A stretch of DNA of 64,000 nt from Cyanidioschyzon merolae (taxonomy: Eukaryota). The DNA is taken from the NCBI GenBank assembly GCA_000091205.1, contig AP006498.2. One strand, written 5' to 3'. Below, piece by piece: positions 11,304 through 64,000 of this stretch. Position 1 is the first letter of the stretch, and every line of letters starts with the position of its first letter. The notes below the pieces were generated by a model. The model saw only the letters and a program-made list of their open reading frames with translations. It was not told the DNA's origin and ran no database searches. Position numbers and translations under genes: made by a program.

Positions 11304-12439
11304 GGAGTCCGTTCACACCCAGCGCTGGGTAGCTTAAGTCAACGAAGATTTGAATCACCTTTGCTGCGTGTATTCGAATGCTTATTCACAATGTACAGCT
11401 GGACGTTGAGATCATGATGGTATGCACTGTATCGATCATCGACGAATTGCCGCTAGGATGTATTCTCTGGTAAATAGTGAAAGGAGGTCTACATTCTGCT
11501 TCGGGTCAGGCATACAATAGTACTCAGATGGTTGAGTAACACAGAAAGAATCACGTAGATACGCTCCGTGCCGAAAACCGATTTGCTCGAAGCGCGCCTG
11601 CGGTTAATGGTATAAAAATGATCCGTTCATCATATTACGGAAAGCAAAAGCAACGATCCTAGCAACTACCAGTGTCTCTATTTCTCAATAGCTTGTTCGC
11701 GTTGTCCTGAAAACACTGGTATACAATCGCATAAAAAGTCCTGGTTCACAAACGGCAATCTTCCGCCGAAATCTCAACGACAGCGTCCTTGGAAAGTCAA
11801 TATCGATATGAAGCACAGAGACGACGATTTGTTTTTTCAGTTAATGAGAGCTTCTTCAGACGAAACGGCCGGAGTGCGGATGGGTAGTCGCGGAGCGTGG
11901 CGTCCGTTGTATGCGCTATCGAACTCTTAGAGAACGAGTATATCATCATCGGTCTAGCTGTAGTGGAATCATTTAGCGGCCTCCAATTCGCGTATACAGA
12001 AGGCTCATACAACAGCGTTGACTTCGTCGAATCAATAAAGGTGTTGTCTCTGACGTCTGGCCACGACCTTCTACTAGACAACGTGGTAGTTCACATTTCC
12101 CCTTGCGTCGAGCTTTTGACGATTCTAATTAGGTAGAGCTGCTTTTGACTCCTCCGTTCTCTCCGCGTTTCAACTGCATCGCAGGAATGTCTTCTATCGT
12201 GAAACGAAATGATCGCTCTAGTGGGCCAATCGATGATGCGTTCAGCACACAGTGAAACACCCGGGCACATGACGTTGTTCTTCCGCCAGTCCTTCATCCT
12301 CCGGGAAGGTCCTCGCTTAAGGGTATCAAGCAGCGCGTTCATTTTTTGAAGAAACTAAAAATCCCAGGGATGAGCTGGGGTTTACTCATCAGAAGATCGA
12401 GATGGAGAAAAGCCAGCGAAGCGCTCCGGCGATAGAAGA

Positions 12440-12812
12440 GCACGGGGAGCTGATCGAGCAGCAAATGGCACAGACGGCACAAGTTCGAGGACTACTTGCA
12501 TTGGTGGGTTCAACAACGGCAAGAAACGCATGGAGTTTGTGAACCGAGACTTTAACGCCGCTATCGATATCAGGAGATGTGCGGTGCTGGAGACGAGACC
12601 TCCAGAATAGACAAGAGTGAACTTTGTTGGACAGCCTCCAAAAATTGAACTATATGAGAAATAATTGGAACCAGTAGCTCGTGGCCGGTCGAAAATGGCT
12701 GGGAGGCGTCTGCACATCAGCTGGAGACGCTGTGTCTAGGGCGCGGTTTCTCGCCAATACTGTGCACGGCCAACGGCGACGTTCGACTTCTGAGGCGAGT
12801 TTGGTAGTGGTG
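12440..12812 (+). mobile_element. Solo 3'-terminal fragment (fragment D) of a TnpB/Fanzor-like element. It carries the RuvC-III motif, a C-terminal tail, and the conserved post-stop non-coding tail.
   Basis: It translates to GKKRMEFVNRDFNAAIDIRRCAVLETRPPE...AGRRLHISWRRCV*. The DNA is homologous to the 3' ends of copies A, B and C, including about 80 nt after the stop (gacgttcgacttctgaggcgagtttggtagtggtgg). Confidence 0.5.
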
Positions 12813-25245: not shown

Positions 25246-26034
25246 TTTCCAATGTATTCTCGAGCGGCGGAGCTCGTCGTGTTGGGATCGTTCCCAACGG
25301 CTCGGGGCTCGATGCAGTCGTTGGAAAGCGTGACGTTCGTGCACGCGTCCGCACCGAAACTGAAAATAGGGATGACCTAAACGAAAATTGACGCTCTCTC
25401 ATGTAATCCAAATTCGGAGCTGAATTCAAAGACCAGAACCGAATGCTTCTGAACCAGCAGCTACAGGGCATTGGAGGAAACGCACATTCGAGCGACGCAC
25501 AAGAACCCCGGACACAACCCCGTTCGCCGCGATCCACGTATGATCCGTACCCCAGTTCGAACGGATGCCCTATGTGGTACGGCAACGCCGTTCTGTCTCC
25601 GTGACGCAACTGTACCGAAGGTAAAGACGCTATTGCGGATGACTAGGGCAGGCATTAGGTGTGCGATAGAACGCATGAAACGACCAGAAAATCCGAGAAG
25701 AAGTTTCGGTAATGTGACTTGGGAGTAGGGTGTTTGATGGATACTTCAAAGCGCACTGAAAAACAAATAAAAAAGAAAGAAAAGAAAAAGCGCACAGTCG
25801 GAGAACGCTGGCCTAAGTAAACGTCTTGTCAATGAAAAAAGAATCCCGCTCGGTGAGCGCATCAGGGAGATCGGGCAGTCAACTGACAAGACGCGCATGT
25901 CGCCGTTGAAGAGAAAAGCGATCCTGATCAGGTGCGTGTTCTACCGGAACAAGTTGGATTTCCGTTGGAGTTTTACAAAAAAGCAGTTTTTCATTTCATT
26001 TGTGCTTCAAACCTCAAACAAGTCTAGTCCAGAG

Positions 26035-28370
26035 TTTTTTCGCAGTATATAACAAAAGCGTTCGAAGAGCGTTCTTTTTCGAAAAAATAAAAAGGAAAGC
26101 TATGAAAAGCAAGTCGACGATCCTGGAAGCCCAGTTTCGCCGGCTGCCAGAAAAAAAACAGAAAAACAGTGCCAAGTCCAGAAGAAAAGGAAGAGAAGAA
26201 GAACCGAAAGGGGGATACCCTACGTCGAAGGCCGCAAGAAAGGCAACTGCACGACGAGAAGGCGGTGAAAGCCTTTCTTCTTGGACATATCAAGGATCCC
26301 TGCAGGGAAAAGTTGCGAGACGCTATCGGAAAACTTGTCGACTCGTACTCCAAGAGTATTGTCAAGGCGTCGTCAGGACCGATGCATTTGGCCAGGGAGA
26401 CGTATCGCGACGTGACGCACATGGAAACAGTCGAGATGCCGGACGAGTCGTTCGACATGACCCTTATTCGATACCTGATGCTTGGTACAGAAAAAGCGCA
26501 GAAGGAAAATGAGCTTGTGCATGCCCTCAACGAAAACTTCGCGGAATTCTGCTTCGAGGGTACCAGAGACGGGGGTGACTCGGATATTTACGACTATGGG
26601 GCGATGAAGTACCTCACGAATCTGAAGAACCGTTTGACAACGAACCTCGAACGTTTCATGACACGCGCAGTGTTTGCACTCTACCCGGGCCAATCTCGCA
26701 ATGGAAAATGGACGATTATCAGTGGCATCACGAGAGATCGCAAGCGTGAAGATGAGGTCGAATTTGTCGATAAGAAGGCATCTAATGAGAGCACAAATGA
26801 AGCTTCTGTAATCCGTGCGGTTATACAAGAGCACCGCGCAGTTTTGGGCTGGCGAATCCAGCAGACAAGCTATCAGAGTTGAAAAAAGATACGGAGACAT
26901 ACTATCGCCTCATCCTGCGCGATTTCGTGTTTTTGGATCGAGAATTCGAACGCAAGGCGGAGATGAAGCTGAGCGAGGAAAAAATGAAGAGTGGGAGAGA
27001 CGGAAGGCTTTCCTAATGGGGAAGCGCTTCAACATGGTTCCAGTGTGCAACATCAAGTCACATTTTGTGACTATCGACTCCAGCGTCCTTCATGGCATCA
27101 TGAGGGAGATCAGTCCGGAGTTCAATGTTAGCAGGGAGGACTTCAACGGTGAAAACCGGGAGACGTACTGGAAGAATATCTTCGACTTCAAGCGTCTCAA
27201 AGCCAGCAAGCAAAAGGTATTCACTGAGATGATCGAAACCAATGGAGTAGACATGTGTATACACTATCGGCGGTTGAAGAGAGATCGTCCAGTCCTGCCC
27301 TCAGCGAAGCATGAAGATGAGAAGGGGGCGGATCCTGCGACGCAGGAAGTGCAGGATAACGACTTCGTCGCTGGCGCGGACTCCGGAAACACAAATATCA
27401 TAACCATCGCAGCACCGAAGCTTGCGGAAGATGGTGCTGACGGCAACTTACGTCAGAAAGACATGCGTCCTTTAAGGTTCTCGAGAGCGAGATACTATTG
27501 AGAATCTGGAATCATGAATGCGAGGAAGAAAACTGAGAAGTGGAATTCAGGAATGAAGGATCACCTGGAAGCTTTGAGCGAGGTGACGAGCCGAGGAGCA
27601 GACTTTGAAGCTTTTCGGGAGTTCATGGATGTTCGCGTTGCTCATTGGGATGCGCTGTAGGAGGAGTATACAAAGCCCCGGTCGCCTCGTTTGCGAATGA
27701 ATTCGTATTGTGGGAAGCAGCGGGCGTTCGCGAATTTTTCAATGAGTTGAGTGCCCTGAAGGAGGATGAAAATCAGAGGCTCGTAGTAGCGTACGGAGCA
27801 GGGCACTGGAAGACCCAAAAAGGGTGTACACCAGCTCCAACGACGAGAGCGTACAAGGAGTGCGCAAGGCGTCTCGTTACGATACCTGTAGATGAGTTCC
27901 GGACATCGTATACACACCATGAACTGGGTTGTACACTTCAGAGGGTGGAGATGGAAAAGTGCCAGCGGAGCCCCGAGGCTATAAAAAAGTACGGACCGCT
28001 CACAGAAGAGCAAATGGAAAGGAGAGCGAATGTTCGAGGGCCTGCTTGCATCAGTAAGTACAACCAGTGATGGTAAGAACCGGAAAGAGTTTGTGAACCG
28101 AGACTTTAACGCCGCTATGAATATAAGGAGATGTGCGGTGCTGGAGAACAGACCTCCAGAGTAGACAAGAGGGTATCTTGTTGGACAATCACTCAAGGTG
28201 GAACCATATGAGAAAAAGATGGAAGCAGTAGTAGGTGGCCGGTCCAAAAAGACTGGGAGGCGTCTGCACCTCGGTTGGAGACGTCTTGTCTAGGGCGGCT
28301 CGGTCGCCACTACTGTACACCGCTGCCGTCGTTCGACTTAGAACGGCGTTTGTTGTTGGTGTGTGTGTAA
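26035..28370 (+). mobile_element. TnpB/Fanzor-like (OMEGA-family RuvC nuclease) transposon relic, copy A
   Basis: The left boundary is defined by where homology to copy B begins (ttttttcgcagtata). The right boundary is where homology to copies B, C and D stops, just after gttggtgtgtgtg. It contains RuvC-I-like GADSGNTNIITIAAP, RuvC-II-like IPVDEFRTSYTHHELGC...C, and RuvC-III NRDFNAAMNIRRCAVLE. Confidence 0.6.
26102..28291 (+). pseudogene. Fanzor/TnpB-like nuclease gene of copy A, disrupted
   Basis: A K/R-rich NLS-like N-terminus comes first (MKSKS...KSRRKGREEE). The reading frame then changes at least 4 times (for example a +/-2 indel in the run gaggaaaaaatgaag). There are two in-frame stops relative to copy B (YY*ESG versus YYLESG, and DAL*EEY versus DALREEY). 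Confidence 0.6.
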
Positions 28371-33872: not shown

Positions 33873-34970
33873 ATGAGTTTCATTCGACTGACCACACGAG
33901 GGTCAGGCGCACAGCCTGCTGAACGCCTCGGTGCTGGGGTCACCATGGCTGCTACGGTTCACTGGCCCGTCACTCGTCTTGGCCTGCACCGGTGCCAAAG
34001 AGACAACCACGCTGTCTACGATGTGGCGCTGCCGCTGGGAACGGTTACCGCGCTCGTCGAAGATGAACCTGGCCTACACGCTCGGACGTTCCTAAGTGTT
34101 TTTATCGCAGAGGGACTAGCGCACGAACACAGCCTGGGTTTGGTGCCGGGTGCACTCGTTGAAGGGGTGCCAGCGAGCCCGGTGGCGGGCCCTTCATCCA
34201 GCGCAGCAGCGAGCGCTTCCTCTGCGGCACCTGAAGCGGACTTGCGAATAGCCTGGCGGTACGCGAATAAAGTCGGGTCCGCTAGCAAGAGAAGAGCAGA
34301 GCGTGCCCGCCTCGATCTGTCGCTCCAAGTTAACCCGCGAGAGCTTTTGCGAAGTTCGGCTGCGCTTCGATTGTACCAATCGCTGGAAGGGGCCCTGGAG
34401 TTCGCTGCAGCCCCTGCATCACAGCAGTGCCGACGACTGGCGCTACAGTCACCGCACCACTGGGTTTGCTCGCAAATGATAGGGGGTCTCAGTGAAGAGA
34501 CGGCGTTGAGTCGCCTTTGGCGGTTCCTATATATCCTCCGACAGCGATGCCGCAAGTCTATGACGGTTGCGGTTATGACGCTGTCCCGTCAGTGGGCCTT
34601 GAATCCATCGTTGCTCCACCTGCTAGACGCTGTGATCGATGTCAATACGTTCGGAGGCAAGGGAGTTGCTGAGCTCGGGCTTGGCGCTTTCGATGGCCTC
34701 ATTCATCCGTTGAAAATGGCTGTGGTGCCGTCGTCGTTGAAACCGATGACTCCGTTCATTGTCGATGACCAGGAGAAATCACCGCTTGAAGTTGATTTGC
34801 TCGTGTTCAGGCGAACACGGCGCGAACTAGTGGTCGAGCCTGCTCACGAGGCACCTGACTTGTCGATTCCGGGCACACGACCATCACATTCCAAAGCGAA
34901 GCAGATAGATGGAGTCGCTGATACATTGAAACAAATGCAGGATGCTGACGCTTTCGCAACGGATTGGTAA
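33873..34970 (+). CDS. Hypothetical protein (365-aa ORF with no recognisable domain)
   Basis: ORF length only. The composition is Ala/Leu-rich, so the frame could also be a GC-driven artefact. Confidence 0.25.
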   Translation: MSFIRLTTRGSGAQPAERLGAGVTMAATVHWPVTRLGLHRCQRDNHAVYDVALPLGTVTALVEDEPGLHARTFLSVFIAEGLAHEHSLGLVPGALVEGVPASPVAGPSSSAAASASSAAPEADLRIAWRYANKVGSASKRRAERARLDLSLQVNPRELLRSSAALRLYQSLEGALEFAAAPASQQCRRLALQSPHHWVCSQMIGGLSEETALSRLWRFLYILRQRCRKSMTVAVMTLSRQWALNPSLLHLLDAVIDVNTFGGKGVAELGLGAFDGLIHPLKMAVVPSSLKPMTPFIVDDQEKSPLEVDLLVFRRTRRELVVEPAHEAPDLSIPGTRPSHSKAKQIDGVADTLKQMQDADAFATDW

Positions 34971-54034: not shown

Positions 54035-54211
54035 TTTTTTGTGCACTGGAAGCATCCTGGAATACTTCATAAAGTCTCCGAGTATAATAAATCTCTGTCT
54101 CTGTAATTTGCGTGCGGGAAAAATGCACACACACCAACAACGCCGCTCTGAAGTCGAACGACGTCGGGCGTGTACAGTAGTAGCGGTGAACGCGCTCTAG
54201 GCTAGACATCC

Positions 54212-56777
54212 TCAACTGACGTGCAGACGCCTCCCAGTCTTTTTGGACCGGCCACCCACTACTGCCTCTATTATTTTCTCATATAGTTCGACTTTGAGAG
54301 GTTGTCCAACAAAGTCCTCTCGTGTCAGCTCTGGAGTCCTCGTCTCCAGCACCGCACATCTCCTGATATTGATAGCGGCATTAAAGTCTCGGTTCACAAA
54401 ATCGATACGTTTCTTGCCATCACTGGTTGTACATGCTGATGCAACTAGTCCTCGAACTTTCGCTCTCCTTTTCATTTGCTCTTCCGTCAGTGGTCCATAC
54501 TTTATTATATCTTCAGGGCTCCTCTAGCACTTTTGCATCTCCACTCTCTGAAGTGTACAACCCAGCTCATGGTGTGTATACGATGTTCGAAACTCATCTA
54601 CAGGTATTGTAACAAAACGCTGTGCACACACTCCTTGTACGTTCTTGTCGTTGGAGCTGGCGTAGTCCCTTTTTGTATCTTCCAGCGCCCTGCTCCGTAC
54701 GCTACCACGAGCCTTCGAGTCTTGTCCTCTTTGAGCGCACTCAAATGATTGAAAAGGTTGGAAAACGCCCGCTGCTTCCCACCGTATCGATTCATACGCA
54801 AACGAGCCCATCGGGGCTTGGTATACTCCTCCCGCAGCGCATCCCAATGAGCAACGCGATCATCCATGAATTTCCGAAAAGCCTGAAAGTCCGCTCCTCG
54901 GCTAGTCACCTCGCTCAAAGCTTCCAGGTGATCCTTTCTTCCTGCATTCCATGTTTCGATTTTCTTCCTCGCATTCATGGTTCCTGATTCCAGGTAGTAC
55001 TTCGCTCTCGAGAATCTCAAAAGACGCATGTCTTTCTGACGTAAGTTACCGTCAGTGCCATCTTCAGCACGCTTCGGTGCTGCGATGGTGATGATATTCG
55101 TATTCCCAGGGTCCACGCCAACGACAAGGTCGTTATCCTGCACTTTCTGCATCTCAAGACCCGCCTCCTTCTTTTCTTCATCCTTCACCGCGCCAATGAC
55201 GAGGTCGTGATCCTGCACCTCCTGCATCGCAGGACCCGCCTCCTTCTTTTCTTCATCCTTCACCGCGCCAATGACGAGGTCGTTATCCTGCACCTCCTGC
55301 ATCGCAGGACCCGCCTCCTTCTTTTCTTCATCCTTCACCGCGCCAATGACGAGGTCGTTATCCTGCACCTCCTGCATCGCAGGACCCGCCTTCTTCTTTT
55401 CTTCATCCTTCACCGCCCTAACGACAAAGTCTTCATCCTCCATCTCCTCCGTCTCAGGAACCGCCTCCTTTTCATCGTCATCCTTCGCCGCGTCAACCAT
55501 AAAGTCGTTATCCTGCAGTTTCTGCGTCGCAGCATCCGCCTCTTTGTTTTCTGCATCCTTCGTCACGGGCGCAGCCGAGTGAGGGACTGGCCGATCTTTC
55601 TTCAACCGCCGGTAGTGTACGCATAAGGCTACTCCATCGGTTTTGATCAACCCAGTGAATACCTTTTGTTCGCTGACTTTGACAGGTTTGAAATCGAAGA
55701 TACTCCTCCAGTACGTCACCCGGTTCTCGCCGGTGAAATCCTCCGTGCTAACTTTGAACTCCGGACTGATCTCCTCCATGATGCCATAAAGGACGCTGGG
55801 GTCGATACTAACAAAATGTGACTTGATGTTGCACAACGGAACGACGTTGAAGCGCTTCCCCTTTAGGACAGCCTTCCTTTTCTCCCACTCTAAATTTTCC
55901 CTCTTCAGCCTCATCTCCGCTTTGCGTTCGAGTTCTCGGTCCAGAAACACGAAATACAGCAGAATAAGGCGATAGCATCTTTCCTTATCTTTTTTTCAAC
56001 TCTGATATCTTGTCTGCTGGATTCGCCAGCCCCAAGATTGCACGGTGCGCTTCTATAACCGCACGGATGACGGAATCCTCATTTGTGCTCCTGCGTGAGG
56101 CCTTCTTGTTGACAAATTCGACCTCATCTTCACGCTTGCGATCTTTCGTGATGCCATTGATAATCGCCCATATCCCCTTGCAAAAGATGCCCGGATACAG
56201 CGCAAACACGGCACGTCTCATGAAACGTTCGAGGTCCACTGTCAAATGGTTCTGCAGATTCGTGAGATGCTTCATCGCTCCGCATGTGTAGATATCCCGG
56301 TCACCCTTGTTTCGAGTGCCCTCGAAACTGTAAAAGGGTTGTTTCTCGTGGAAGGCATGTACTAGCTCATTTTCCTTTTGCGTTTCATCTGTACCAAGCA
56401 TCAGGTGATGAGTAAAGACTTATCGAAAAACCCGTCAGGGTACCTCGACCGTTTCCATGTGCGTAACTTCGTGGTACATCTCCCTCGCCAAATGCATTAG
56501 TCCTGACGACGCCTTGACAATACTCTTGGAGTACGAGCCGACACGTTTTTCGATAATGTCTCGCAACTTTCCCCTGTAGGGATCCTTGATATATCCAAGA
56601 AGACAGGTTTTCACCACAACCTCGTAGTGCGGTCGTCTTTCTTGCCGCCTTCTACGTAGGGCCTCCCATTTTTGCTTCTTTTTCTCTTCCTTTTCTTATG
56701 AACTCGGCACCGTCTTTTGTTTTTTTTTTAGCAACCGCCGACCCTGGACCTCCAGGATCGTGGACTTGCTTTTTCAT
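54212..56777 (-). pseudogene. Fanzor/TnpB-like nuclease gene of copy B, disrupted
   Basis: Relative to copy A there are in-frame stops (MGGPT*; VEVP*RVFR*), a +1 insertion in a poly-A tract (ttgaaaaaaagata versus ttgaaaaaagata in A), and frame changes near 54540 and 54480. It also contains an expanded 75-bp (25-aa) tandem repeat (DNDLVIGAVKDEEKKEAGPAMQEVQ x about 4.5) that is absent from copy A. Confidence 0.6.
55130..55470 (-). repeat. Tandem repeat, 75-bp unit x about 4.5, inside the copy-B Fanzor-like ORF
   Basis: The unit gccaatgacgaggtcgttatcctgcacctcctgcatcgcaggacccgcctccttcttttcttcatccttcaccgc is repeated on the plus strand. Copy A has a single unit at the same position. Confidence 0.8.
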
Positions 56778-57678
56778 ACCTTTCCTTTTTAGTTTTTTTT
56801 TTTGAGAAAGAACCCTCTTTGAAGCTTTCTGTTGTATACTGCGAAAAAACACTCCTGTATTTTTATTTGAGGGCTGCAACATGACTGAGATGAAACCATA
56901 TATTTTGTTACGATTGCAATGCAAATACAAGTTATATGTTAGAACAACACGCCAAGGAATCCTGAGGATCACATTCCCCTTCAACGGCGACAAGTGCGTC
57001 GCGTCCGTTGACTACCCGACCTCCCAGAGGCGCTCACCGAGCGCGATGCGTGCACCGCGCGAGACGCTACACAGATCGATGAAGGACACGTGTCCGACGC
57101 CACGATGGCGCCTCGACGCTCTTTACACAAATGTCGCAACTGTATCGTATCGCCAACACCGCCGCTGCACGGGATGCGCGCATTTGCGCTCGCGCATCGG
57201 GGCAGCTGCAGGCTGCCCCAAGGGGCGTGCTGCTGCGACTCTTTGGAACCGAACTTTGGCATTATGATGCATCGTATTCGTTTTTACACAATAATAGGAC
57301 ATGATTGTTCCATTTCAAGTCCAGGGCCATTAGTGCATCTTGGTTGGTGTCCCATGTGTACTATTTAGGACAGGATCTCACCAGTAGCAGATCGAAACAA
57401 ACTTTTGGATGATTGGTCCATGTGCATAAATGTCCATTACATTCTATATTGATCCGTATAGAACAGGTTCAAGTGCTCGCATGCATCTCGAGAGCAGAAC
57501 CGGCTGCACGCGTTGCGCAACGTGCGTTTCCAACGTTGCGCGCGCAACGCACGTGGCTGCAGTCATTGAAAACGGCTAGTTTTGCGATCGTTCGTTGCGT
57601 GATCTGAAGCCGGCGATTTCCTTCTTTGGACACGCTTTTGGGCGAGCTTCCCGAGCTGTACGAAGACAAGATTCACCG

Positions 57679-59994
57679 ATGAAAGGAGGCTTGAGGCGGA
57701 GTAGTCTCAGGCGGGTACTCTGGCTGCGTGTTTTGGTCGTTTGTTTGTGGTTCTCGGCCCGTATTCGGGTTTTGGTTGGCGCAGGGGCACCGGCTTATCC
57801 CGTGCGATGGAGCTGGATAGGTGGAGAAACTAGTGTCAACAATTATGGGAAGTATGGTACGCTGAACGTGGCGTCCTCGAATAACGTCCCAGGCGGTCGC
57901 CACTACTCCTCGACCTGGGTTGGAAGCCCCGGCGTTCTGTACCTTTTTGGTGGCTTTGGATACGCGAACTCCTCTGGAGGTTATCTTAACGATCTGTGGA
58001 GGCTGAACGTTACCTCGCTCGAGTGGGCATGGATCGGAGGATCTCTGGACATTTATGTGCCTGGAAACTATGGTACACTTGGAGTCGGAAGCGCCCTCAA
58101 TATTCCGGGCGCAAGGGAGGCCAGTGCATTCTGGCGTGCAGACGAGGAGCATTTCTGGTTGTTTGGAGGCTACGGATTGGATGGAAATGGTAATATCGGT
58201 TGCCTTAACGACATGTGGCAGTACGACACAGTTAGTGGAAACTGGACCTGGGTAGACGGCAACGATACAATCAATGCCTTACCCACGTACGGGCCAATGG
58301 GTTCCTACGATCCCTCTTACAACCCTGGGGCTCGCTTAAAGGCAGCGTTCTGGCTGGGTGCAGATGGAAACTTCTGGTTGTTTGGAGGTGAGAATTGCTA
58401 TTCGTACCTGTTTTCAGACCTTTGGTGCTTCAACAGATCCTTATCACTGTGGGCATATATGGGTGGGTCACAATCGGTAAACCAGCCTGGCAATTACAGT
58501 GAACCTGATATTGCCAATAGATCGAATGCTCCCGGAGCTCGCCAGGGTGCAATTACATGGACGGATTCAAAAGCCAATCTGTGGATGTTTGGTGGGTTTG
58601 GTTATGGAAACGGTTCGGAATCTTATCCAGGATTTTTGAATGATCTTTGGTTTTATAACATTAGTACGTCCATATGGACGTTTGTCGCAGGCAATACCAC
58701 GATCTCGATCCCTGGATCGTATATCATATTTGGCAATACCGATGCTGCAAGCTATCCTGGATCCCGCGAGTCTGGAGTTGGCTTCATTGACGCTTCAGGA
58801 AATCTACAGCTTTTTGGTGGTGAAGGGTACGGGAACAGTAGTAGCGAAAGCGGCGATCTGAACGATCTTTGGTTGTTTAACGTGGAGCAGCGCCAGTGGG
58901 CTTGGATCAATGGTAGCGCAGTCATTAATGCCCCCGCTGATTATGGAATGTTTAGGACTTTCAGTCCCAGCGTCGTTCCCGGTGCTCGGTATGGATCTGC
59001 TCTCTGGAATACAACTGAAAGCGGCATGATACTGTTCGGAGGATTCGGATACTCGAACACAAGTGAAGGAAAGGGAGAGCTCAATGATATATTCATGCTC
59101 AGCGAATCAATGATTACCCCTTCCCCGACACCGACACCGACGCCGACACCGACGCCGACACCAACCTCAACCTCAACGCCTACAGCGACACCGACTGCGT
59201 CGGCGACTCCATCACTCTCAGCGACACCGTCCACAACAGCGAATGTCACGAAAATTCCTATAAATGGCGGCACCACGATCTGCTTCCCGGAGGATGCCAC
59301 TGTGCTGATCGATCGTCTGGGCAGTATTCGGCCGATGAGTGAGTTGCGCTCGGGTATGAGTGTGATTGGGGCCGATAGAAGTGGACAGCTGCTAGAGGAT
59401 ACTATACTTGGATGGTTGCACAAAGAGCCTGGCGCAACCGCGGAGGTCCTACTTATTAAGACGTTATCAGGGAAGCAGTTGCGCTTGACTAGGCAGCATT
59501 TAGTGTACCGTATGCACGCAAGCATGAGAGTCCGGGGTTTTGGGATGATCCCTTTTTCAGATCTTTTACGTCACCAGCAGACAAGACGTCAGAGGCCCGA
59601 GCTGGAGAGCCTCGCCCTCGAGGCAGTTTTTGCAGAACATATACGCATAGGCGACGCCCTTCTCGATGCCGCTGCCCATAGAGCGGACCCTGTCGTCGCG
59701 ATCGACACTTATGTAACGCGTGAGGGAGTCTATGCGCCACTAACGCGTTCCGGACGCCTCGTGGTTGATGGTCTACTCGTAAGCTGCTACGGCACGTACG
59801 CCTCGCACGAGGTCGCCCACGCTGTGCTATGGCCTGCGCGGGTAGATGTGCTGCGCACCATGTGGGGTTCAGCGCTCGGTTCAGACAGTACAGCGTCTAT
59901 CATGCCGTACGCGGAAAGGCTCTACCGCATATACGCAAGTGCAGCGCAAATATTGGGGAAGGCTCGCGTGATTGTTGTAGGTGCTGCCTGCTGA
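57679..59994 (+). CDS. Secreted Kelch-repeat (galactose-oxidase-type beta-propeller) protein with a Thr/Pro-rich linker and a C-terminal Hedgehog-type Hint/Hog autoprocessing domain
   Basis: A signal-peptide-like N-terminus (LRRVLWLRVLVVCLWFSA). Six or more Kelch blades, each with an LNDLW-type motif. A PTPTPTPTPTPTPTSTSTPTATPTASATP linker. The Hint N-block starts with Cys: CFPEDATVLIDRLGSIRPMSELRSGMSVIGAD. The C-block is APLTRSGRLVVDGLLVSCYG...HEVAHAVLWPAR, which resembles the Hh/Hog TxxH...SCYA...WAHxAFAP pattern. Confidence 0.7.
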   Translation: MKGGLRRSSLRRVLWLRVLVVCLWFSARIRVLVGAGAPAYPVRWSWIGGETSVNNYGKYGTLNVASSNNVPGGRHYSSTWVGSPGVLYLFGGFGYANSSGGYLNDLWRLNVTSLEWAWIGGSLDIYVPGNYGTLGVGSALNIPGAREASAFWRADEEHFWLFGGYGLDGNGNIGCLNDMWQYDTVSGNWTWVDGNDTINALPTYGPMGSYDPSYNPGARLKAAFWLGADGNFWLFGGENCYSYLFSDLWCFNRSLSLWAYMGGSQSVNQPGNYSEPDIANRSNAPGARQGAITWTDSKANLWMFGGFGYGNGSESYPGFLNDLWFYNISTSIWTFVAGNTTISIPGSYIIFGNTDAASYPGSRESGVGFIDASGNLQLFGGEGYGNSSSESGDLNDLWLFNVEQRQWAWINGSAVINAPADYGMFRTFSPSVVPGARYGSALWNTTESGMILFGGFGYSNTSEGKGELNDIFMLSESMITPSPTPTPTPTPTPTPTSTSTPTATPTASATPSLSATPSTTANVTKIPINGGTTICFPEDATVLIDRLGSIRPMSELRSGMSVIGADRSGQLLEDTILGWLHKEPGATAEVLLIKTLSGKQLRLTRQHLVYRMHASMRVRGFGMIPFSDLLRHQQTRRQRPELESLALEAVFAEHIRIGDALLDAAAHRADPVVAIDTYVTREGVYAPLTRSGRLVVDGLLVSCYGTYASHEVAHAVLWPARVDVLRTMWGSALGSDSTASIMPYAERLYRIYASAAQILGKARVIVVGAAC
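59105..59225 (+). repeat. Imperfect (CCGACA/CCGACG)n-type coding microsatellite encoding the PT linker of the Kelch-Hog protein
   Basis: ccgacaccgacaccgacgccgacaccgacgccgacaccaacctcaacctcaacgcc. Confidence 0.7.
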
Positions 59995-60632
59995 GCATCC
60001 AGTCTGACGTAGAGTACAGGCGCAACTAGCATACGGGATACAACATAAGCTGCGAGGCCTACCTGCTGAGGTTCTTATCAAAGCGATGGTAATAATGTAT
60101 GGTTCACTGCGTAAAAGCCTTCGACAACATACTGCTAAGCACGTGGATCACGGAGGCGGCATGAGTCCTGCACCTGAATATGGGAAGCCGGATCTATATA
60201 TGAGCGCATTCGAAGAAACCGGTGAAGAAAATAATCTGAGAACAAGATTGGGTTGTGCATATATTGGTTGATGATCATAGCAGCACATGCAGGGCACATG
60301 AGAATTCGCGATCCGTGAGTCAAGTACATTGAAGCTTGGAGATGTGGTTGATTGTGCCAGGGCGCAAACGACTCCTCTAGACCGTTTCCGCAGTCGTGGA
60401 TGTTAGCGGTCAGCTCTGTTGCTTGACACTTGGAGCTGTGGCGTAAACGCATTCAGGAACTGATTCATGGAAAGAGATGAACCTTAGCAGTAAACCACAC
60501 TTTCTCAAAACGCAAAATATCATCCACAGTGATACATGATCCAGAATTGGCGCAGACGGCAGAGAAGCAGAAATGGATTACAGTGGCACAATTTTACTCC
60601 TTCTGCACTGGAAAGCATGACGTCGAAAAGTT

Positions 60633-62900
60633 GCACCCACAGCCAAACGCCGTTCTAAAGCGGAACGACGTCGGCATAGTGCAGTAGCGGCGACCGGTCC
60701 GCCCTAGACGAAACGTCTCCAACTGAAGTGCAGACGCCTCCCAGTCTTTTTGGACCGGACACCTATTACTGCTTCCAATTGTTTCTCATATAGTTCGACT
60801 TTGAGAGGTTCTCTTAGAGAGTTCTCTTTTGTCCATTCTGGAGGACTTTTCTCTAGTACCGCACATCTACTTTTATTGATAGCGGCGTTAAAGTCTCGGT
60901 TCAAAAACTCTTTCCGGTTCTTGCCGTTGGTGGTACTTATGCAAGTAGCCCTCGAACTATCGCTTTCCTTTCCGTTTGCTCTTCTGTCAGCGGTCTGTAG
61001 TTTTCACATCCTCAGGGCTCCACTGGCACTTTTCAATCTCCATTCTCTGAAGTGTACAACCCAGTTCATGGTGTGTATACGATGTTCGGAACTCATCTAC
61101 AGGTATCGTAACGAAACGCCTTGCGCACCCCTTGTACACCCTAGTCGTTGGAGCTGGTGTACACCCTTTTTGGGTCTTCCAGCGCCATGCTCCGTATGCT
61201 AATACGAGCCACTGACGTTCATTCTCCTTCAAGGCGCTCAACTGATTGAAGAAATTCGCAAATGCATGCTGCCTCCCACCGCGTAGATTCATTTGCAAAC
61301 GAGTCTACCGTGGCTTTGAGTATTCCTTGCACAGCGCATCCCAGTGTGCAACGCGAACTTCTTTGAATATCCAAAAAACTAGAGAGTCCGCTCTTGGGCA
61401 TGTCACCTCGCTCAAAGTTTCCGGGTTATCCTTAACTGTTGCACTCCACGGGTCGATGTCCATCCTCGCACTCAATCTCCCGGATTCCCGATACCATCTC
61501 GCTCTCGAGAACACCAACAAAAACAGGTCTTTCTGAGGCATGTTGCCGTCAGTACCACCTTCCGCACGCCTGGGAGCAGCGATGCTGATGATATTCGTAT
61601 TCAAGGGGTTAAGGCCGCAGAGAAAGACGATTTCGTGGGCATCATACGTTCCATCGCCCGTCTTCTTGTGTACGCGCTTCGGCAAGTGAGATAACGAAGA
61701 CGGGATAGGACGACGTGCCTTCAACCCCTGAGAGTGTAGGTTTATGTATACCACATCGTAATCGATGGCCCCCGTGAGTACCTTCCTTTGGCCGGTTTGG
61801 GACGCTTGAAATCGAAGATATTCTACCAGGGTGTCCCGGTCTTCGCCGGTGATCTCTTTGTAGTTTACATCGAGCTCTGGACCGATCTATTTCGTGAAGG
61901 CGTAAAGGACTCTAGAGTCGATATTCACAGAATATGAATTGAACTCGCATAACTGAACCACAATGAATCGCATCTGGAGAAGGCCTTCAATGTCGGTACT
62001 CCCACCCGTCATTTTTTCTGCACTCTGCTCCATGTCGGCCTTGCGTGCGTGTTCTCTGTCCGAAAAAATGAGGTGTGGCAAGATGAGGGAGTAAATTCTC
62101 TCTTCGTCTTCTTTGATCATATCTGACAGTTTTCACTTGGGATGACATGACCCAAGACCGAACGATGTTTTAGAATAGTGGCGCGGATAACGAAAGCAAG
62201 ATTCTTTCTCCTGTTTGATGTCCTCTTGTCGACGATTCTGATCTCCTGTTCATGCTGGCGATCGCTCTTCTTGCAATCGATGATTGCCAGTATCCCTTTG
62301 CGAAACGGGCCCGGGTACAGCGCAAAGACGACGCGTTTCATGAAACAATCGAGGTTTACGATCTTATGGTTCCTCACTTTCGTAAGGCACCTCATTGCCC
62401 TGTATTCGAAAAATGTCGGCGTCACCCCCTCGTTCAGCATCGCTGACGAGGTATTTGGCGTAATTTTTGAGGAAGGCATGCACTCGCTCATTTATCCCCG
62501 ATGTTTTCCCATTAAAAACAATCAGGTGGTTGATGTAAGTCTATTGTGAAAAATCTTCCGGAAACATCACCTTCGCGGTGTGCGTCACGTCCCGATGCAG
62601 CTCGCTCTCCAAACGCCGCAGTCTTCAAGAAAAGTTAAAAATATACATGGCGTACGAACCGACACTGTTTCTGATAACGTCTCGCAACATTGAGTGGTAA
62701 GGATCATTGATATGTAGGAAAAGATAGGATTCCACCACCATCTCGTCGTACAGACGTCACTATTGAAGCCTTCAATGTAAGACCTCCCCATGTTGCATCT
62801 TCTTTTTTTCCTGATCCTCTTCGATCGGCACTAAGTCACGTTTCATTCTGAAATACACAATACCGGCCACCCCAAACCCACTCCCCCAATTACATTAGTC
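60633..62900 (-). mobile_element. TnpB/Fanzor-like transposon relic, copy C (most degenerate). The 5' boundary is approximate.
   Basis: RuvC-III NRDFNAAINKSRCAVLE. The zinc-finger/RuvC-II block VDEFRTSYTHHELGCTLQRMEIEKC. A RuvC-I remnant GLNPLNTNIISIAAP, in which the Asp is lost. An N-terminal remnant RAVFALYPGPFRKG. The 3' tail is conserved (gtcgttccgctttagaacggcgtttggctgtgggtg). There are many frame breaks. Confidence 0.5.
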
Positions 62901-64000
62901 TAATTTTTTAGGAGAAAAACTCATTGAAGACCTCTACTTTGAGCAGCGAAAATCAGCTGAGAACATTTACTTGAAGATTGAAACGCCATTGAAGCCAAAA
63001 CTATATTTTGCTACGACCCGATCGCAAAATAAAAGTGGCCGCGATGGATAAAACAGTCGCTCCAGAAGAGGTCATTAGCAGGTTTCTCTTGATCGGCGAG
63101 AAGCACGTGGTGTGATGTGACGGCCAAATTTCAGGATAAGTCATTAACAGGTGCGCGACGAAGAGAATGCAAAAAAATTACCCACAAAGGGGATAGCAAG
63201 CACTATCGCAAACTACAGTAAACTTCAATAGGAAGAGGTTTTTACGTTTGCTCCAACAGTCATCTATTAGGCGGGAGGTCTCCGAGCCGCGAGATTCTAC
63301 CAGATAGTGCCCCGTCTAGAACTTCAGTGGCAGGTGATGTGTCGCTCCTTTCCATCTCGTCCGAAACGAATTTTTTGGGACTAGGAGGGGCTATGCTGCG
63401 TCTGGGCCCCAACTTGGATGCAGTGAACACGTACTACACCGCTTCGCACTCCCACAGGCAGAGGGTCTGCAACAACAGCTTGGAGGCTCGCAACAAAATA
63501 AATCTCTGTCATTCCATGTTGTATGAACCAAGCCACTTCCAACGAGCACAGTGGTATGCAAAAGCTGCTCTGTAACCAGAGGATATCCGCAACGGAGATA
63601 CAAACGATAGAGCGGGTGCTTACGGCAGGCATTGGCGCCGAATAAAAAGCCTGACTAGATCAATAAAGCCGAGATTAAGTAAATACAACGGAAGCTGAAG
63701 TAACTATTCAGCGGAACGGTTGATTTCCTGAAACGATTATCGATCCGGAGGTCACGGCCGTCTGGGCAGTGTAGAGGTTCTGTAAAAACCAAAAACAAAA
63801 AAGCTGGAGGTAAAACAGTAATGATCATGGAATGCCAGATGGAGATATAACAGATGCGTACGCGCTCAGATCGTACCGCCGAAGACGGATCAGTAATGAA
63901 TCTTGAGAGATAGAAGTCATAATCACATATGCATTGGCACTGGGATCATCGCGTTAATGGGGAAGTGCGTGAAGTGCGTGGGTTGGAGGTAAATGGGGGG

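Follow-up and report, generated by a model that had tools for sequence, protein, structure and literature searches.

A probable element H Kelch+Hog gene at chromosome end 16R of Cyanidioschyzon merolae and its predicted Hedgehog-type autoprocessing domain

The open reading frame described here is very probably the Kelch+Hog (K+Hog or K+H) gene of element H at chromosome end 16R and a member of the published Cyanidiales family of Kelch-stalk proteins; that its product belongs to this family is practically certain. The gene is real but not new: “hedgehog protein” is the name it has carried in the annotation from the C. merolae genome papers onward. The sequence-only reading, which described the fusion itself, missed this context: the architecture is that of an annotated and published Cyanidiales gene family.

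In this family, as described in the available text of two sources (Cho 2023 Nat Commun; Plant Cell 2026 koag148), a Kelch propeller with a Thr/Pro/Ala (T/P/A) stalk is joined to one of two modules, Hint/Hog or trefoil. Cyanidioschyzon has 11 K+H fusions with a T/P/A linker, and Cyanidiococcus has 3; the family is subtelomeric, and subtelomeric families turn over fast (available text of Cho et al. 2023 Nat Commun). Both family traits are found in the query, whose Kelch part is joined to Hint via a Thr/Pro/Ala-rich linker and whose gene occupies a subtelomeric site in a Cyanidioschyzon genome. It shares with the published members the order of signal, Kelch, T/P/A linker, and Hint, as well as subtelomeric position and organism, and nothing sets it apart from them. 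The full-length K+Hint homologues P0001, P0002, and P0015 have the same architecture and 49 to 55% identity to the query, which is also the range for the Cyanidiococcus and metagenomic K+H proteins.

The Kelch+trefoil (K+T or K+TFF) proteins of Cyanidiales, such as Cyanidiococcus CCYA04G1438 (P0040; 60% identity to the query over residues 14 to 478), have the signal, Kelch propeller, and T/P-rich stalk in common with the query and are likewise subtelomeric (available text of Cho 2023), but their C-terminal module consists of trefoil domains instead of Hog. According to the available text of Plant Cell 2026 (koag148), which gives family-level data, K+Hog genes are expressed mostly in the haploid phase, whereas expression of the K+TFF family falls mostly in the diploid phase, when cells are walled. 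The same text records the detection of RNA and protein for K+Hog family members and calls the function of cyanidialean Hog proteins unknown. No biochemical report of their cleavage or lipidation was found in the literature, and the available text of Nozaki 2007, Cho 2023, and Plant Cell 2026 makes no mention of a per-residue analysis of the active site or of analyses of fold and selection.

The window, i.e., the whole 64-kb stretch of DNA that was analyzed, forms the right end (16R) of C. merolae 10D chromosome 16 (908,485 bp), of which it is the last 64 kb. This address follows from a neighboring ORF at 33873-34967, an exact match to CYME_CMP351C of C. merolae 10D, together with the terminal telomere unit and the CMe-1A repeats typical of this genome (Table 1). 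The telomere repeat occurs in the window only once, at its very end, and the tandem two-unit form AATGGGGGGAATGGG has no match within it. Such a single terminal unit agrees with the remark in the available text of Nozaki 2007, where the repeat is defined, that at most 2.5 units were sequenceable at any C. merolae chromosome end. Between the K+Hog stop codon and the window's end lie 4,006 bp. Element H, with its “hedgehog protein” gene, sits at chromosome ends 3L and 16R (available text of Nozaki 2007), and the ORF is very probably the “H” gene of that element at 16R, a link that rests on position.

Table 1. Positions of the K+Hog gene, its parts, and flanking features in the window
Feature	Position	Strand	Basis
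Fanzor1 CMe-1A copy, ~3-kb interspersed element, upstream flank	54124..56691	-	blastn self-match, translation, TRF
Kelch+Hog (K+H) single-exon complete CDS	57679..59994	+	771 aa + stop; ORF list, translation, homologues
Putative cleavable signal peptide, residues 1-35, basic and hydrophobic, ...VLWLRVLVVCLWFSARIRVLVGAGA/PAYP	57679..57783	+	Hydropathy, model, homologues
Six-bladed Kelch beta-propeller, residues 42-476, 14 N-glycosylation sequons	57802..59106	+	Pfam, motifs, model, Foldseek
Thr/Pro/Ser/Ala-rich linker, residues 477-534, predicted disordered, ends in Ile534	59107..59280	+	Composition, pLDDT ~30, repeat
Hint core of Hog domain, residues 535-705	59281..59793	+	PF01079, alignments, active-site table, fold match
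Catalytic Cys535 (C1) codon	59281-59283	+	
His581 codon (position 46)	59419-59421	+	
Thr604 codon (TxxH)	59488-59490	+	
His607 codon (TxxH)	59497-59499	+	
Cys703 codon (SCY, C143)	59785-59787	+	
SRR/ARR-like helix-loop-helix tail, residues 706-771, HEVAHAVLWPARV... then IMPYAERLYRIY..., conserved end ...GAAC	59794..59991	+	PF01079, alignment, model
Decayed Fanzor1 CMe-1A copy, between gene and telomere	60632..62820	-	Same orientation as upstream copy; blastn
Telomere repeat AATGGGGGG, one unit	63992..64000	+	Sequence; last 9 bases of window

The mechanical ORF spans 57595..59994 (+), with its first ATG at 57679. It is uninterrupted, as the sequence-only reading had stated, and its translation contains every motif string quoted there. 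The product consists of a hydrophobic N terminus, six Kelch blades, a Thr/Pro/Ser/Ala linker, the Hint module, and a helical tail of ~66 aa. The N-terminal segment is a putative cleavable signal peptide. Its Kyte-Doolittle maxima fall at residues 13 to 20, and the predicted structure has a helix at residues 8 to 31. The N termini of the homologues are hydrophobic but not conserved and end in A/G-A followed by T/P-P right before the first WxWxGG strand.

The Kelch propeller contains exactly six blades, each with all four signatures: W-x-W-x-x-G (residues 44, 116, 189, 258, 333, and 407), PG-x-R (residues 71, 143, 216, 285, 360, and 434), [LM]FGG (residues 89, 161, 234, 303, 378, and 452), and [NS]D[LMI][WF] (residues 104, 177, 246, 321, 395, and 469). 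The earlier count of “six or more” is thereby made precise; five blades had been listed, and the sixth is ELNDIFMLS. Pfam models PF24681 (97.8 versus a cut-off of 50) and Kelch_4 (57.3 versus 21.6) exceed their thresholds, as do Kelch_3 and Kelch_6, so that the Pfam check proposed for Kelch and Hint comes out positive on both counts (PF01079 is treated below). The propeller is modeled with pLDDT >90, and Foldseek retrieves the six-bladed Kelch proteins LZTR1, KLHDC2/3, and KEAP1 (E ~1e-15). There are 14 N-x-S/T sequons in the propeller, compared with 5.7 +/- 2.1 in shuffled sequences, none of 5000 of which reached 14. Secretory routing is suggested by this enrichment in the cargo together with the hydrophobic N terminus.

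Secreted multi-Kelch proteins of bacteria (metagenome proteins from Bacteroidota, Holophagales, and Planctomycetota; many with T9SS sorting domains) are 35 to 42% identical to the query across the propeller and have the same ~72-aa blade consensus, WTWxxG...YGTxG...NxPGAR...WLFGG...LNDLW. They differ in lacking Hint, in usually having at least two propellers, and in carrying bacterial sorting and Ig-like domains. NanM (sialate mutarotase) and galactose oxidase appear as pipeline names on homologues. The query scores below the respective cut-offs (PF24996 NANM, 29.1 versus 45; NF010730, 36 versus 416; TIGR03547, 35 versus 256), and the resemblance is that of a generic Kelch repeat; an enzymatic role for the Kelch part was rejected on these scores.

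The linker (residues 476 to 534) consists of 34% Thr, 22% Pro, 14% Ser, and 8.5% Ala, which bears out its earlier description as PT-rich and fits the T/P/A linker in the available text of Cho 2023. A (CCGACN)n microsatellite at 59125-59195, found in a tandem repeat search, accounts for part of its coding sequence.

The C-terminal module begins at Cys535 in TTI/CFPEDATV, after an Ile, where the sequence-only reading had placed its start, and contains LTRQHLVY and VSCYG. The Pfam Hint profile PF01079 (cut-off, 29.7 bits) matches the whole protein with an E value of 2.4e-34 and 119.2 bits and the domain alone with 124 bits, over profile positions 11 to 208 of 213; no other model of the Hint clan matches the domain at E<=10. 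Its best sequence match in PDB is SHH (E 1.7e-10). Foldseek superimposes the predicted fold on Drosophila Hh-C (6TYY/1AT0) with a TM score of 0.89 and an rmsd of 2.3 Å (E 2-4e-12). The predicted structure is that of a Hedgehog-type Hint fold, interrupted by a low-confidence Arg/Gln-rich insert at residues 616 to 644 and followed by an SRR-like helix-loop-helix. The HhN signaling domain (PF01085) has no match in the query, whose N-terminal part is Kelch, making it a non-Hh Hog protein and not a bona fide Hedgehog; the available text of Plant Cell 2026 concludes likewise.

Animal Hh-C (PDB 1AT0, 6TYY, and 7E2I) has in common with the query PF01079, the fold, C1, TxxH, the SCY cysteine, the His/Asp general base, and the AH..L.P.R and Y...LY blocks of a predicted SRR-like helix-loop-helix. 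The identity is only ~25 to 30%. The cargo in animals is HhN instead of a Kelch propeller with a mucin-like stalk. Further differences in the query include Ile instead of Gly at position -1, MPY instead of HWY, an Arg/Gln-rich insert of ~30 residues after TxxH, and a conserved C-terminal ...AAC. The combination of a lineage-specific secreted cargo with Hog is also found in the non-Hh Hogs of red macroalgae, mosses, and dinoflagellates, in the choanoflagellate Hoglet, and in the nematode warthog and groundhog proteins (Burglin 2008), and the query shares it, with a signal peptide that is putative. A secretory context has been proposed for Hog proteins generally, and a Kelch cargo is not mentioned among them (Burglin 2008). 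Hogs of red algae and mosses have Ser, Thr, or Asp in place of the motif-J cysteine (Burglin 2008); the cyanidialean proteins keep this cysteine (Cys703).

Judged by alignment, the query carries the full Hh-type active site, made up of Cys535, Thr604, His607, Cys703, and, where Hh has Asp46, His581. The columns of Cys535, Thr604, and His607 are invariant in alignment A1 and invariant or at least 90% conserved in A4. A survey of 123 retrieved Hog domains, with the query and the typed Drosophila reference left out, shows C1 in 109/109, T69 in 122/123, H72 in 123/123, and C143 in 107/123 of the domains covering each position; the query has all four. A role of C143 as the second catalytic cysteine has been described (PMC12054796). 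His581 occupies the general-base position 46 (Asp303 of Drosophila Hh), where its equivalent is found in 9 of the 9 cyanidialean sequences intact there, while the fragment P0127 has Tyr. Engineered D303H retains structure and cholesterylation activity and accepts a wider sterol range (PMC9163320; PMC12054796). His is found at position 46 in 40/123 retrieved Hog domains, a frequency biased upward because candidates were picked by words shared with His-containing queries. These domains include annotated animal DHH and Hh proteins, and His581 was accordingly dropped as an unusual feature.

The residue at position -1 is Ile534 in the query, Val or Lys in its cyanidialean relatives, and Gly in 102 of the 103 other Hog domains; the GCF junction of Hog domains is thus not found in the query. 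Inteins accept many different residues at this position. Gly at -1 is a conserved Hh habit rather than a chemical requirement, and a beta-branched residue there may slow thioester formation.

The tail of 66 residues conforms to the predicted ~70-aa region analogous to a sterol-recognition region and aligns with the SRR blocks of Hh. The PF01079 match reaches profile position 207-208 of 213. Among 74 Hog domains, AH..L.P.R and Y...LY stand out as conserved blocks, and H187, P192, R194, Y217, and L221 (Hog numbering) are invariant or nearly so with Hh. The Hog model places helices at positions 183 to 203 and 215 to 243 with low confidence (pLDDT about 50 to 75); helix 2 has a hydrophobic moment of 0.47. 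The SRR motif HWY, whose His touches cholesterol in simulations (PMC9163320), is replaced by MPY.

The sequence-only reading had inferred that the Kelch cargo would be released or lipid-modified. In the mechanism proposed here, the N-terminal signal would route the precursor to the ER, where the propeller would be N-glycosylated and the stalk O-glycosylated. Cys535 would then attack the Ile534 carbonyl in an N-to-S acyl shift assisted by Thr604 and His607, with a branched thioester at Cys703 as a possible intermediate. The SRR-like helices would position a nucleophile, most likely the 3-beta-OH of a membrane sterol, and His581 would activate it to resolve the thioester. The Hog fragment would be discarded, and the Kelch-plus-stalk cargo would remain on the outside of the plasma membrane, tied to the lipid by an ester bond. 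Judging from the conserved residues and the modeled fold, self-cleavage between Ile534 and Cys535 is likely. A sterol as the adduct on the cargo is a tentative proposal, with somewhat less than an even chance by the sequence evidence; it is less certain than cleavage because of the Ile at -1 and the change of HWY to MPY.

Sterol synthesis via the cycloartenol route is predicted for C. merolae (PMC2817430). Hog might esterify the Kelch-plus-mucin-stalk cargo to such an endogenous sterol, giving the wall-less haploid cell a sterol-anchored coat that is variable (subtelomeric and multi-copy), with trefoil as the anchor in the walled diploid; as a whole, this scenario is speculative and rather doubtful. 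If true, it would reveal a natural “His46” Hog enzyme active in a thermo-acidophile. If it occurs, such protein sterylation would to our knowledge be the first demonstrated in a non-animal, here an alga amenable to genetics. The Kelch+Hog protein offers a test case for whether non-animal Hog domains attach lipid and which one: C. merolae has homologous-recombination genetics and only about 17 Hog genes, and the residues for experiments are defined (Ile534/Cys535, His581, Thr604/His607, and Cys703), with Ile at -1 and MPY for HWY as the features likeliest to alter the chemistry.

Alternatively, Hog might cleave but with water or a small non-lipid nucleophile as the acceptor of the cargo, leaving a Kelch glycoprotein that is soluble or matrix-held and reducing Hog to a self-removing pro-domain. 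This possibility is rather unlikely. In its favor, the thioester chemistry is the same until the last step (PMC9163320), the HWY motif is changed to MPY, the tail is modeled with low confidence, and the adduct of non-Hh Hogs is generally unknown, hence the term “ARR” (Burglin 2008). The possibility is opposed by the competent His at the general-base position throughout the intact cyanidialean sequences, the two SRR helices with blocks shared with sterylating Hedgehogs, and the amphipathic helix 2; in Hh, the SRR elements and the general base are needed for the lipid-transfer step only (PMC9163320; PMC12054796).

A catalytically silent Hint module, with the protein working at full length, e.g., in a structural or adhesive role at the surface, would fit the replacement of Gly at -1 throughout the cyanidialean clade. 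It is nevertheless improbable, as all five active-site positions are kept across paralogues and species that are only ~50% identical overall, the high-confidence predicted fold matches active Hh-C, and the coding sequence is constrained. Compared with a natural metagenomic relative, the coding part is 99.2% identical and the downstream DNA 96.0% (Fisher p = 3.5e-7), a divergence 5-fold below that of the flanking DNA, which indicates that the coding sequence is under purifying selection. The same comparison makes it very improbable that the gene is a decaying or silent subtelomeric duplicate without present function, despite its position 4 kb from the telomere between two decayed Fanzor1 CMe-1A copies and the rapid turnover of subtelomeric families (available text of Cho 2023): the ORF of 771 codons is unbroken and retains every motif, and family members are seen as RNA and protein (available text of Plant Cell 2026).

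A reading as an intein, a bacterial intein-like (BIL) domain, or a Pretoxin-HINT module, acting by splicing or by freeing a C-terminal payload, is virtually excluded: inteins and BIL domains share the fold but rank lower in the fold search (best intein, E 2e-8, about four orders of magnitude behind Hh-C), the intein_Nterm model TIGR01445 gives a weak sub-threshold match (16.5 versus 24.5 bits), the Pfam intein, PT-HINT, Hint_2, and Vint models (PF14890, PF07591, PF13403, and PF14623) do not match at E<=10, no C-extein or toxin follows the SRR-like tail in which the protein ends 66 residues past the Hint core, and residues 535 to 771 contain no Asn, with Ser702 before Cys703 where class-1 inteins have the terminal Asn. 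The Hog assignment of the sequence-only reading, which named a better fit to intein or Pretoxin-HINT as grounds for abandoning it, thus holds, the nearest sequences and folds being Sonic and Drosophila Hh-C.

The two flanking elements are assigned to Fanzor1 CMe-1A on the basis of self-blastn, Bao & Jurka 2013, and the available text of Nozaki 2007; Pfam gave no match for the upstream copy, and neither Pfam nor PDB phmmer gave any for the downstream ORF fragments, in which TnpB/Fanzor motifs had been suspected. The upstream copy contains a 450-aa ORF with a GVDPG RuvC-I-like motif and a tandem array of 5.9 units of 75 bp at 55116-55561 (TRF). The downstream copy is 66 to 78% identical to 54124-56691 and 72% identical to 26180-28361 (blastn), and its ORF fragments contain VDEFRTS...C and RDFNAAINK.

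The gene occupies one open frame on the plus strand (57595..59994 in the mechanical ORF list), whose first ATG, at 57679, is the start proposed by the sequence-only reading and opens 771 codons plus a stop; the list contains no ORF of comparable kind on the other strand of the locus. All the motif strings quoted in that reading are found in the translation of 57679-59994. A motif scan shows four signatures, WxWxxG, PGxR, LFGG, and NDLW, common to all six Kelch blades, and a tandem-repeat search shows that part of the linker is encoded by a (CCGACN)n microsatellite. The propeller contains 14 sequons (5.7 ± 2.1 expected). Asparagine is absent from the 237 residues of the Hog module (Hint core plus tail; 59281-59991, residues 535-771), compared with 39 of 441 in the propeller, so that the catalytic module has no N-glycosylation sites. 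This absence is specific to this copy; homologues carry a few Asn residues there.

Features of the Kelch-Hog protein and of the repeats in the window (residue numbers refer to the protein, other positions to the window)
Feature	Position	Orientation	Remarks
N-terminus	residues 1-35		basic, then hydrophobic
Kelch propeller	residues 42-476 (57802-59106)		six blades, ~72 residues each
Linker	residues 477-534		Thr 34%, Pro 22%, Ser 14%, Ala 8.5%
C-terminal module	starts at Cys535		junction TTI/C535FPEDATV
Hh-C C1	Cys535		alignment
Hh-C D46	His581		alignment
Hh-C T69 / H72	Thr604 / His607		alignment
Hh-C C143	Cys703		alignment
CMe-1A copy	54124-56691	(-)	upstream of the gene; self-blastn
CMe-1A copy	60632-62820	(-), same as 54124-56691	downstream of the gene
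CMe-1A copy	25843-28367	inverted	
CMe-1A fragment	12370-12794		
Tandem array	55116-55561		75 bp, 5.9 copies, 86% matches; inside upstream CMe-1A copy

The Pfam Hint family PF01079 matches residues 533-751 with 119 bits (cut-off, 29.7), covering profile positions 11-207 of 213, and several Kelch families also exceed their thresholds; the proposed union of Kelch and Hedgehog-type Hint domains is confirmed as an observation and supported as an interpretation. When the C-terminal 244 residues are scanned alone at E ≤ 10, PF01079 (124 bits) is the sole Hint-clan match, none of the intein, PT-HINT, Hint_2, and Vint models matching, and the NCBIfam intein N-terminal model scores under its cut-off for the protein. 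Sonic hedgehog (1.7e-10) and Drosophila Hedgehog head the PDB sequence matches. In the AlphaFold model of the whole protein, the propeller has pLDDT >90, the linker is disordered, and the Hint core is well modelled; a fold search finds the propeller to resemble the six-bladed Kelch domains of LZTR1, KLHDC2/3, and KEAP1. The Hog domain, modelled separately from 74 sequences, is closest to Drosophila Hh-C (6TYY and 1AT0; E, 2-4e-12; TM, 0.89; rmsd, 2.3 Å), with the first inteins and BIL domains at E ~2e-8. Profiles and fold therefore both place the module with the Hedgehog-type Hint, as had been claimed, and not with inteins or Pretoxin-HINT.

In the published descriptions of Hh-C (PMC12054796, PMC9163320), C1, D46, T69, H72, and C143 make up the active site, and a helix-loop-helix that recognises sterol comes after them. 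The module was aligned with cyanidialean homologues and with Drosophila and human Hh-C, the latter two sequences agreeing with the PDB-match alignments. The position of D46 is His in 9 of 10 cyanidialean homologues and Tyr in the remaining one, a fragment. In a set of 123 retrieved Hog domains, from which the query and the Drosophila reference were left out and in which the mode of collection favoured His, this position is Asp in 82 and His in 40, the latter group including annotated fish Hedgehogs and Desert hedgehog of snake and frog. Hh-C engineered to carry D303H retains both its structure and its ability to cholesterylate, with a broader sterol range (PMC9163320), and autoprocesses in cells (PMC12054796); His581 is thus compatible with lipid transfer.

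The tail is modelled as two helices, and its AH..L.P.R and Y...LY positions, in common with Hh, are invariant or nearly so in the alignments. In contrast to Hh, however, the sterol-recognition 'HWY' is replaced by 'MPY', and position -1, just ahead of the catalytic Cys, is occupied by Ile in this protein and by Val or Lys in relatives, whereas Gly stands there in 102 of 103 other sequences. The cyanidialean proteins retain the motif-J cysteine, unlike the red-algal and moss Hog domains, from which it is usually absent (Burglin 2008). Every complete cyanidialean Hog among the homologues (P0001, P0002, P0015, and P0121-P0126), like the protein studied here (Cys771, 59989-59991), ends in a Cys after a small hydrophobic stretch (...VVGAAC, ...VAAAC, ...IAAAC, ...IAVAC, or ...ISAAC) that animal Hh-C proteins lack. 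This Cys belongs to the fragment that cleavage would discard.

A putative signal peptide would direct the precursor into the ER, and the propeller sequons and the mucin-like stalk are in keeping with a cargo that is glycosylated and extracellular. A thioester would then form between Cys535 and Ile534, and Cys703 might take over as a branched intermediate, a role described for the C143-type cysteine (PMC12054796). The nucleophile, delivered by His581 and the SRR-like helices, would most plausibly be a sterol of the membrane; synthesis of sterols via the cycloartenol route is predicted for C. merolae (PMC2817430). The Kelch-stalk product would stay at the cell surface by a lipid anchor, with loss of the Hog fragment. 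The main rival is cleavage of the precursor without lipidation, which shares the reaction at Cys535 and differs in its outcome; the altered 'MPY' speaks for this rival, the conserved tail positions against it. A silent Hint is unlikely in a module that aligns with C1, T69, H72, and C143 of Hh-C, and an intein-type reaction is unlikely in one that finds Hh-C ahead of any intein.

A dead duplicate is likewise improbable. A hot-spring metagenome contig (L001; JGI metagenome 3300050355, 4356 bp), collinear with window 59143-63489, differs from the window at 7 of 852 coding sites and at 139 of 3495 downstream sites (Fisher p = 3.5e-7), a comparison that indicates constraint on the coding sequence of the Hog part. 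Of the four amino-acid differences, three lie within the poorly modelled insert 616-644. This contig and two others (L002 and L003) are 96-99% identical to window 59125-63489, decayed Fanzor copy included, and natural C. merolae-like populations therefore have this subtelomeric arrangement too.

The nearest full-length relatives, two Cyanidiococcus yangmingshanensis proteins and one metagenome protein (49-55% identity), all have the Kelch+PF01079 architecture. The family has been described before, so that the gene is a member of a known family and its detection a correct rediscovery. Nozaki 2007 counts 'hedgehog protein' (H) genes among subtelomeric gene contents and reports element H only at 3L and 16R. 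According to Cho 2023, the commonest duplicated subtelomeric genes of Cyanidiales join Kelch to trefoil or Hint via a Thr/Pro/Ala-rich linker, and Kelch+Hint copies, of which Cyanidioschyzon has 11 and Cyanidiococcus three, are absent from Cyanidium. A Plant Cell 2026 paper reclassifies these proteins as non-Hh Hog, gives 17 C. merolae Hog genes, and finds that most of them are expressed chiefly in the haploid phase, which lacks a wall, and the trefoil paralogues chiefly in the diploid phase. The remaining value of the protein is that of a well-defined substrate with which sterylation of proteins in non-animals could be tested.

The telomere unit AATGGGGGG, unique to C. merolae according to Nozaki 2007, forms the final nine bases of the window (63992-64000), its sole occurrence there, and thus marks a true chromosome end (16R). 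A short GTGCGTGAAGTGCGTGGG duplication lies just before it. The ORF at 33873-34967 is identical to CYME_CMP351C of C. merolae 10D; together with the telomere unit and the CMe-1A copies, this identifies the window as the last 64 kb at the right end of chromosome 16. The stop codon of the gene lies 4,006 bp from this end.

Over residues 14-478, the Kelch part shares 60% identity with a Kelch+trefoil protein of Cyanidiococcus, exceeding the full-length identity to the Kelch+Hint proteins of the same species, so that one scaffold carries alternative C-terminal modules. This shared scaffold and the published phase-biased expression suggest that the module may set the anchoring of the propeller, by lipid to the membrane in wall-less cells or by trefoil to wall glycans in walled ones. 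Outside Cyanidiales, the propeller is nearest to bacterial secreted multi-Kelch proteins (35-42% identity over the whole domain) from Bacteroidota, with T9SS tails, Holophagales, Planctomycetota, and Burkholderiales; eukaryotic Kelch structures reach only ~15-18% identity. These similarities, from a database dominated by prokaryotic metagenomes, hint at a possible bacterial origin of the Kelch cargo domain.

The 2-3-kb dispersed repeat of the window is the Fanzor1 (eukaryotic TnpB-like) element CMe-1A, known from C. merolae (Bao & Jurka 2013) and listed by Nozaki 2007 as the '253-copy WSV486-like repeat'. Its four copies or fragments are 65-84% identical to one another and all look decayed; their ORFs contain the motifs GVDPG, VDEFRTS..C, and RDFNAAINK. 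Two copies bracket the Kelch-Hog gene as direct repeats, which could drive its duplication between chromosome ends. The 75-bp array encodes 25-aa acidic repeats (AVKDEEKKEAGPAMQEVQDNDLVIG) of a 450-aa ORF (54598-55950, minus strand) and explains the pronounced GC/AT-skew excursions at 54-56 kb, those at 26-28 kb being due to the inverted copy.
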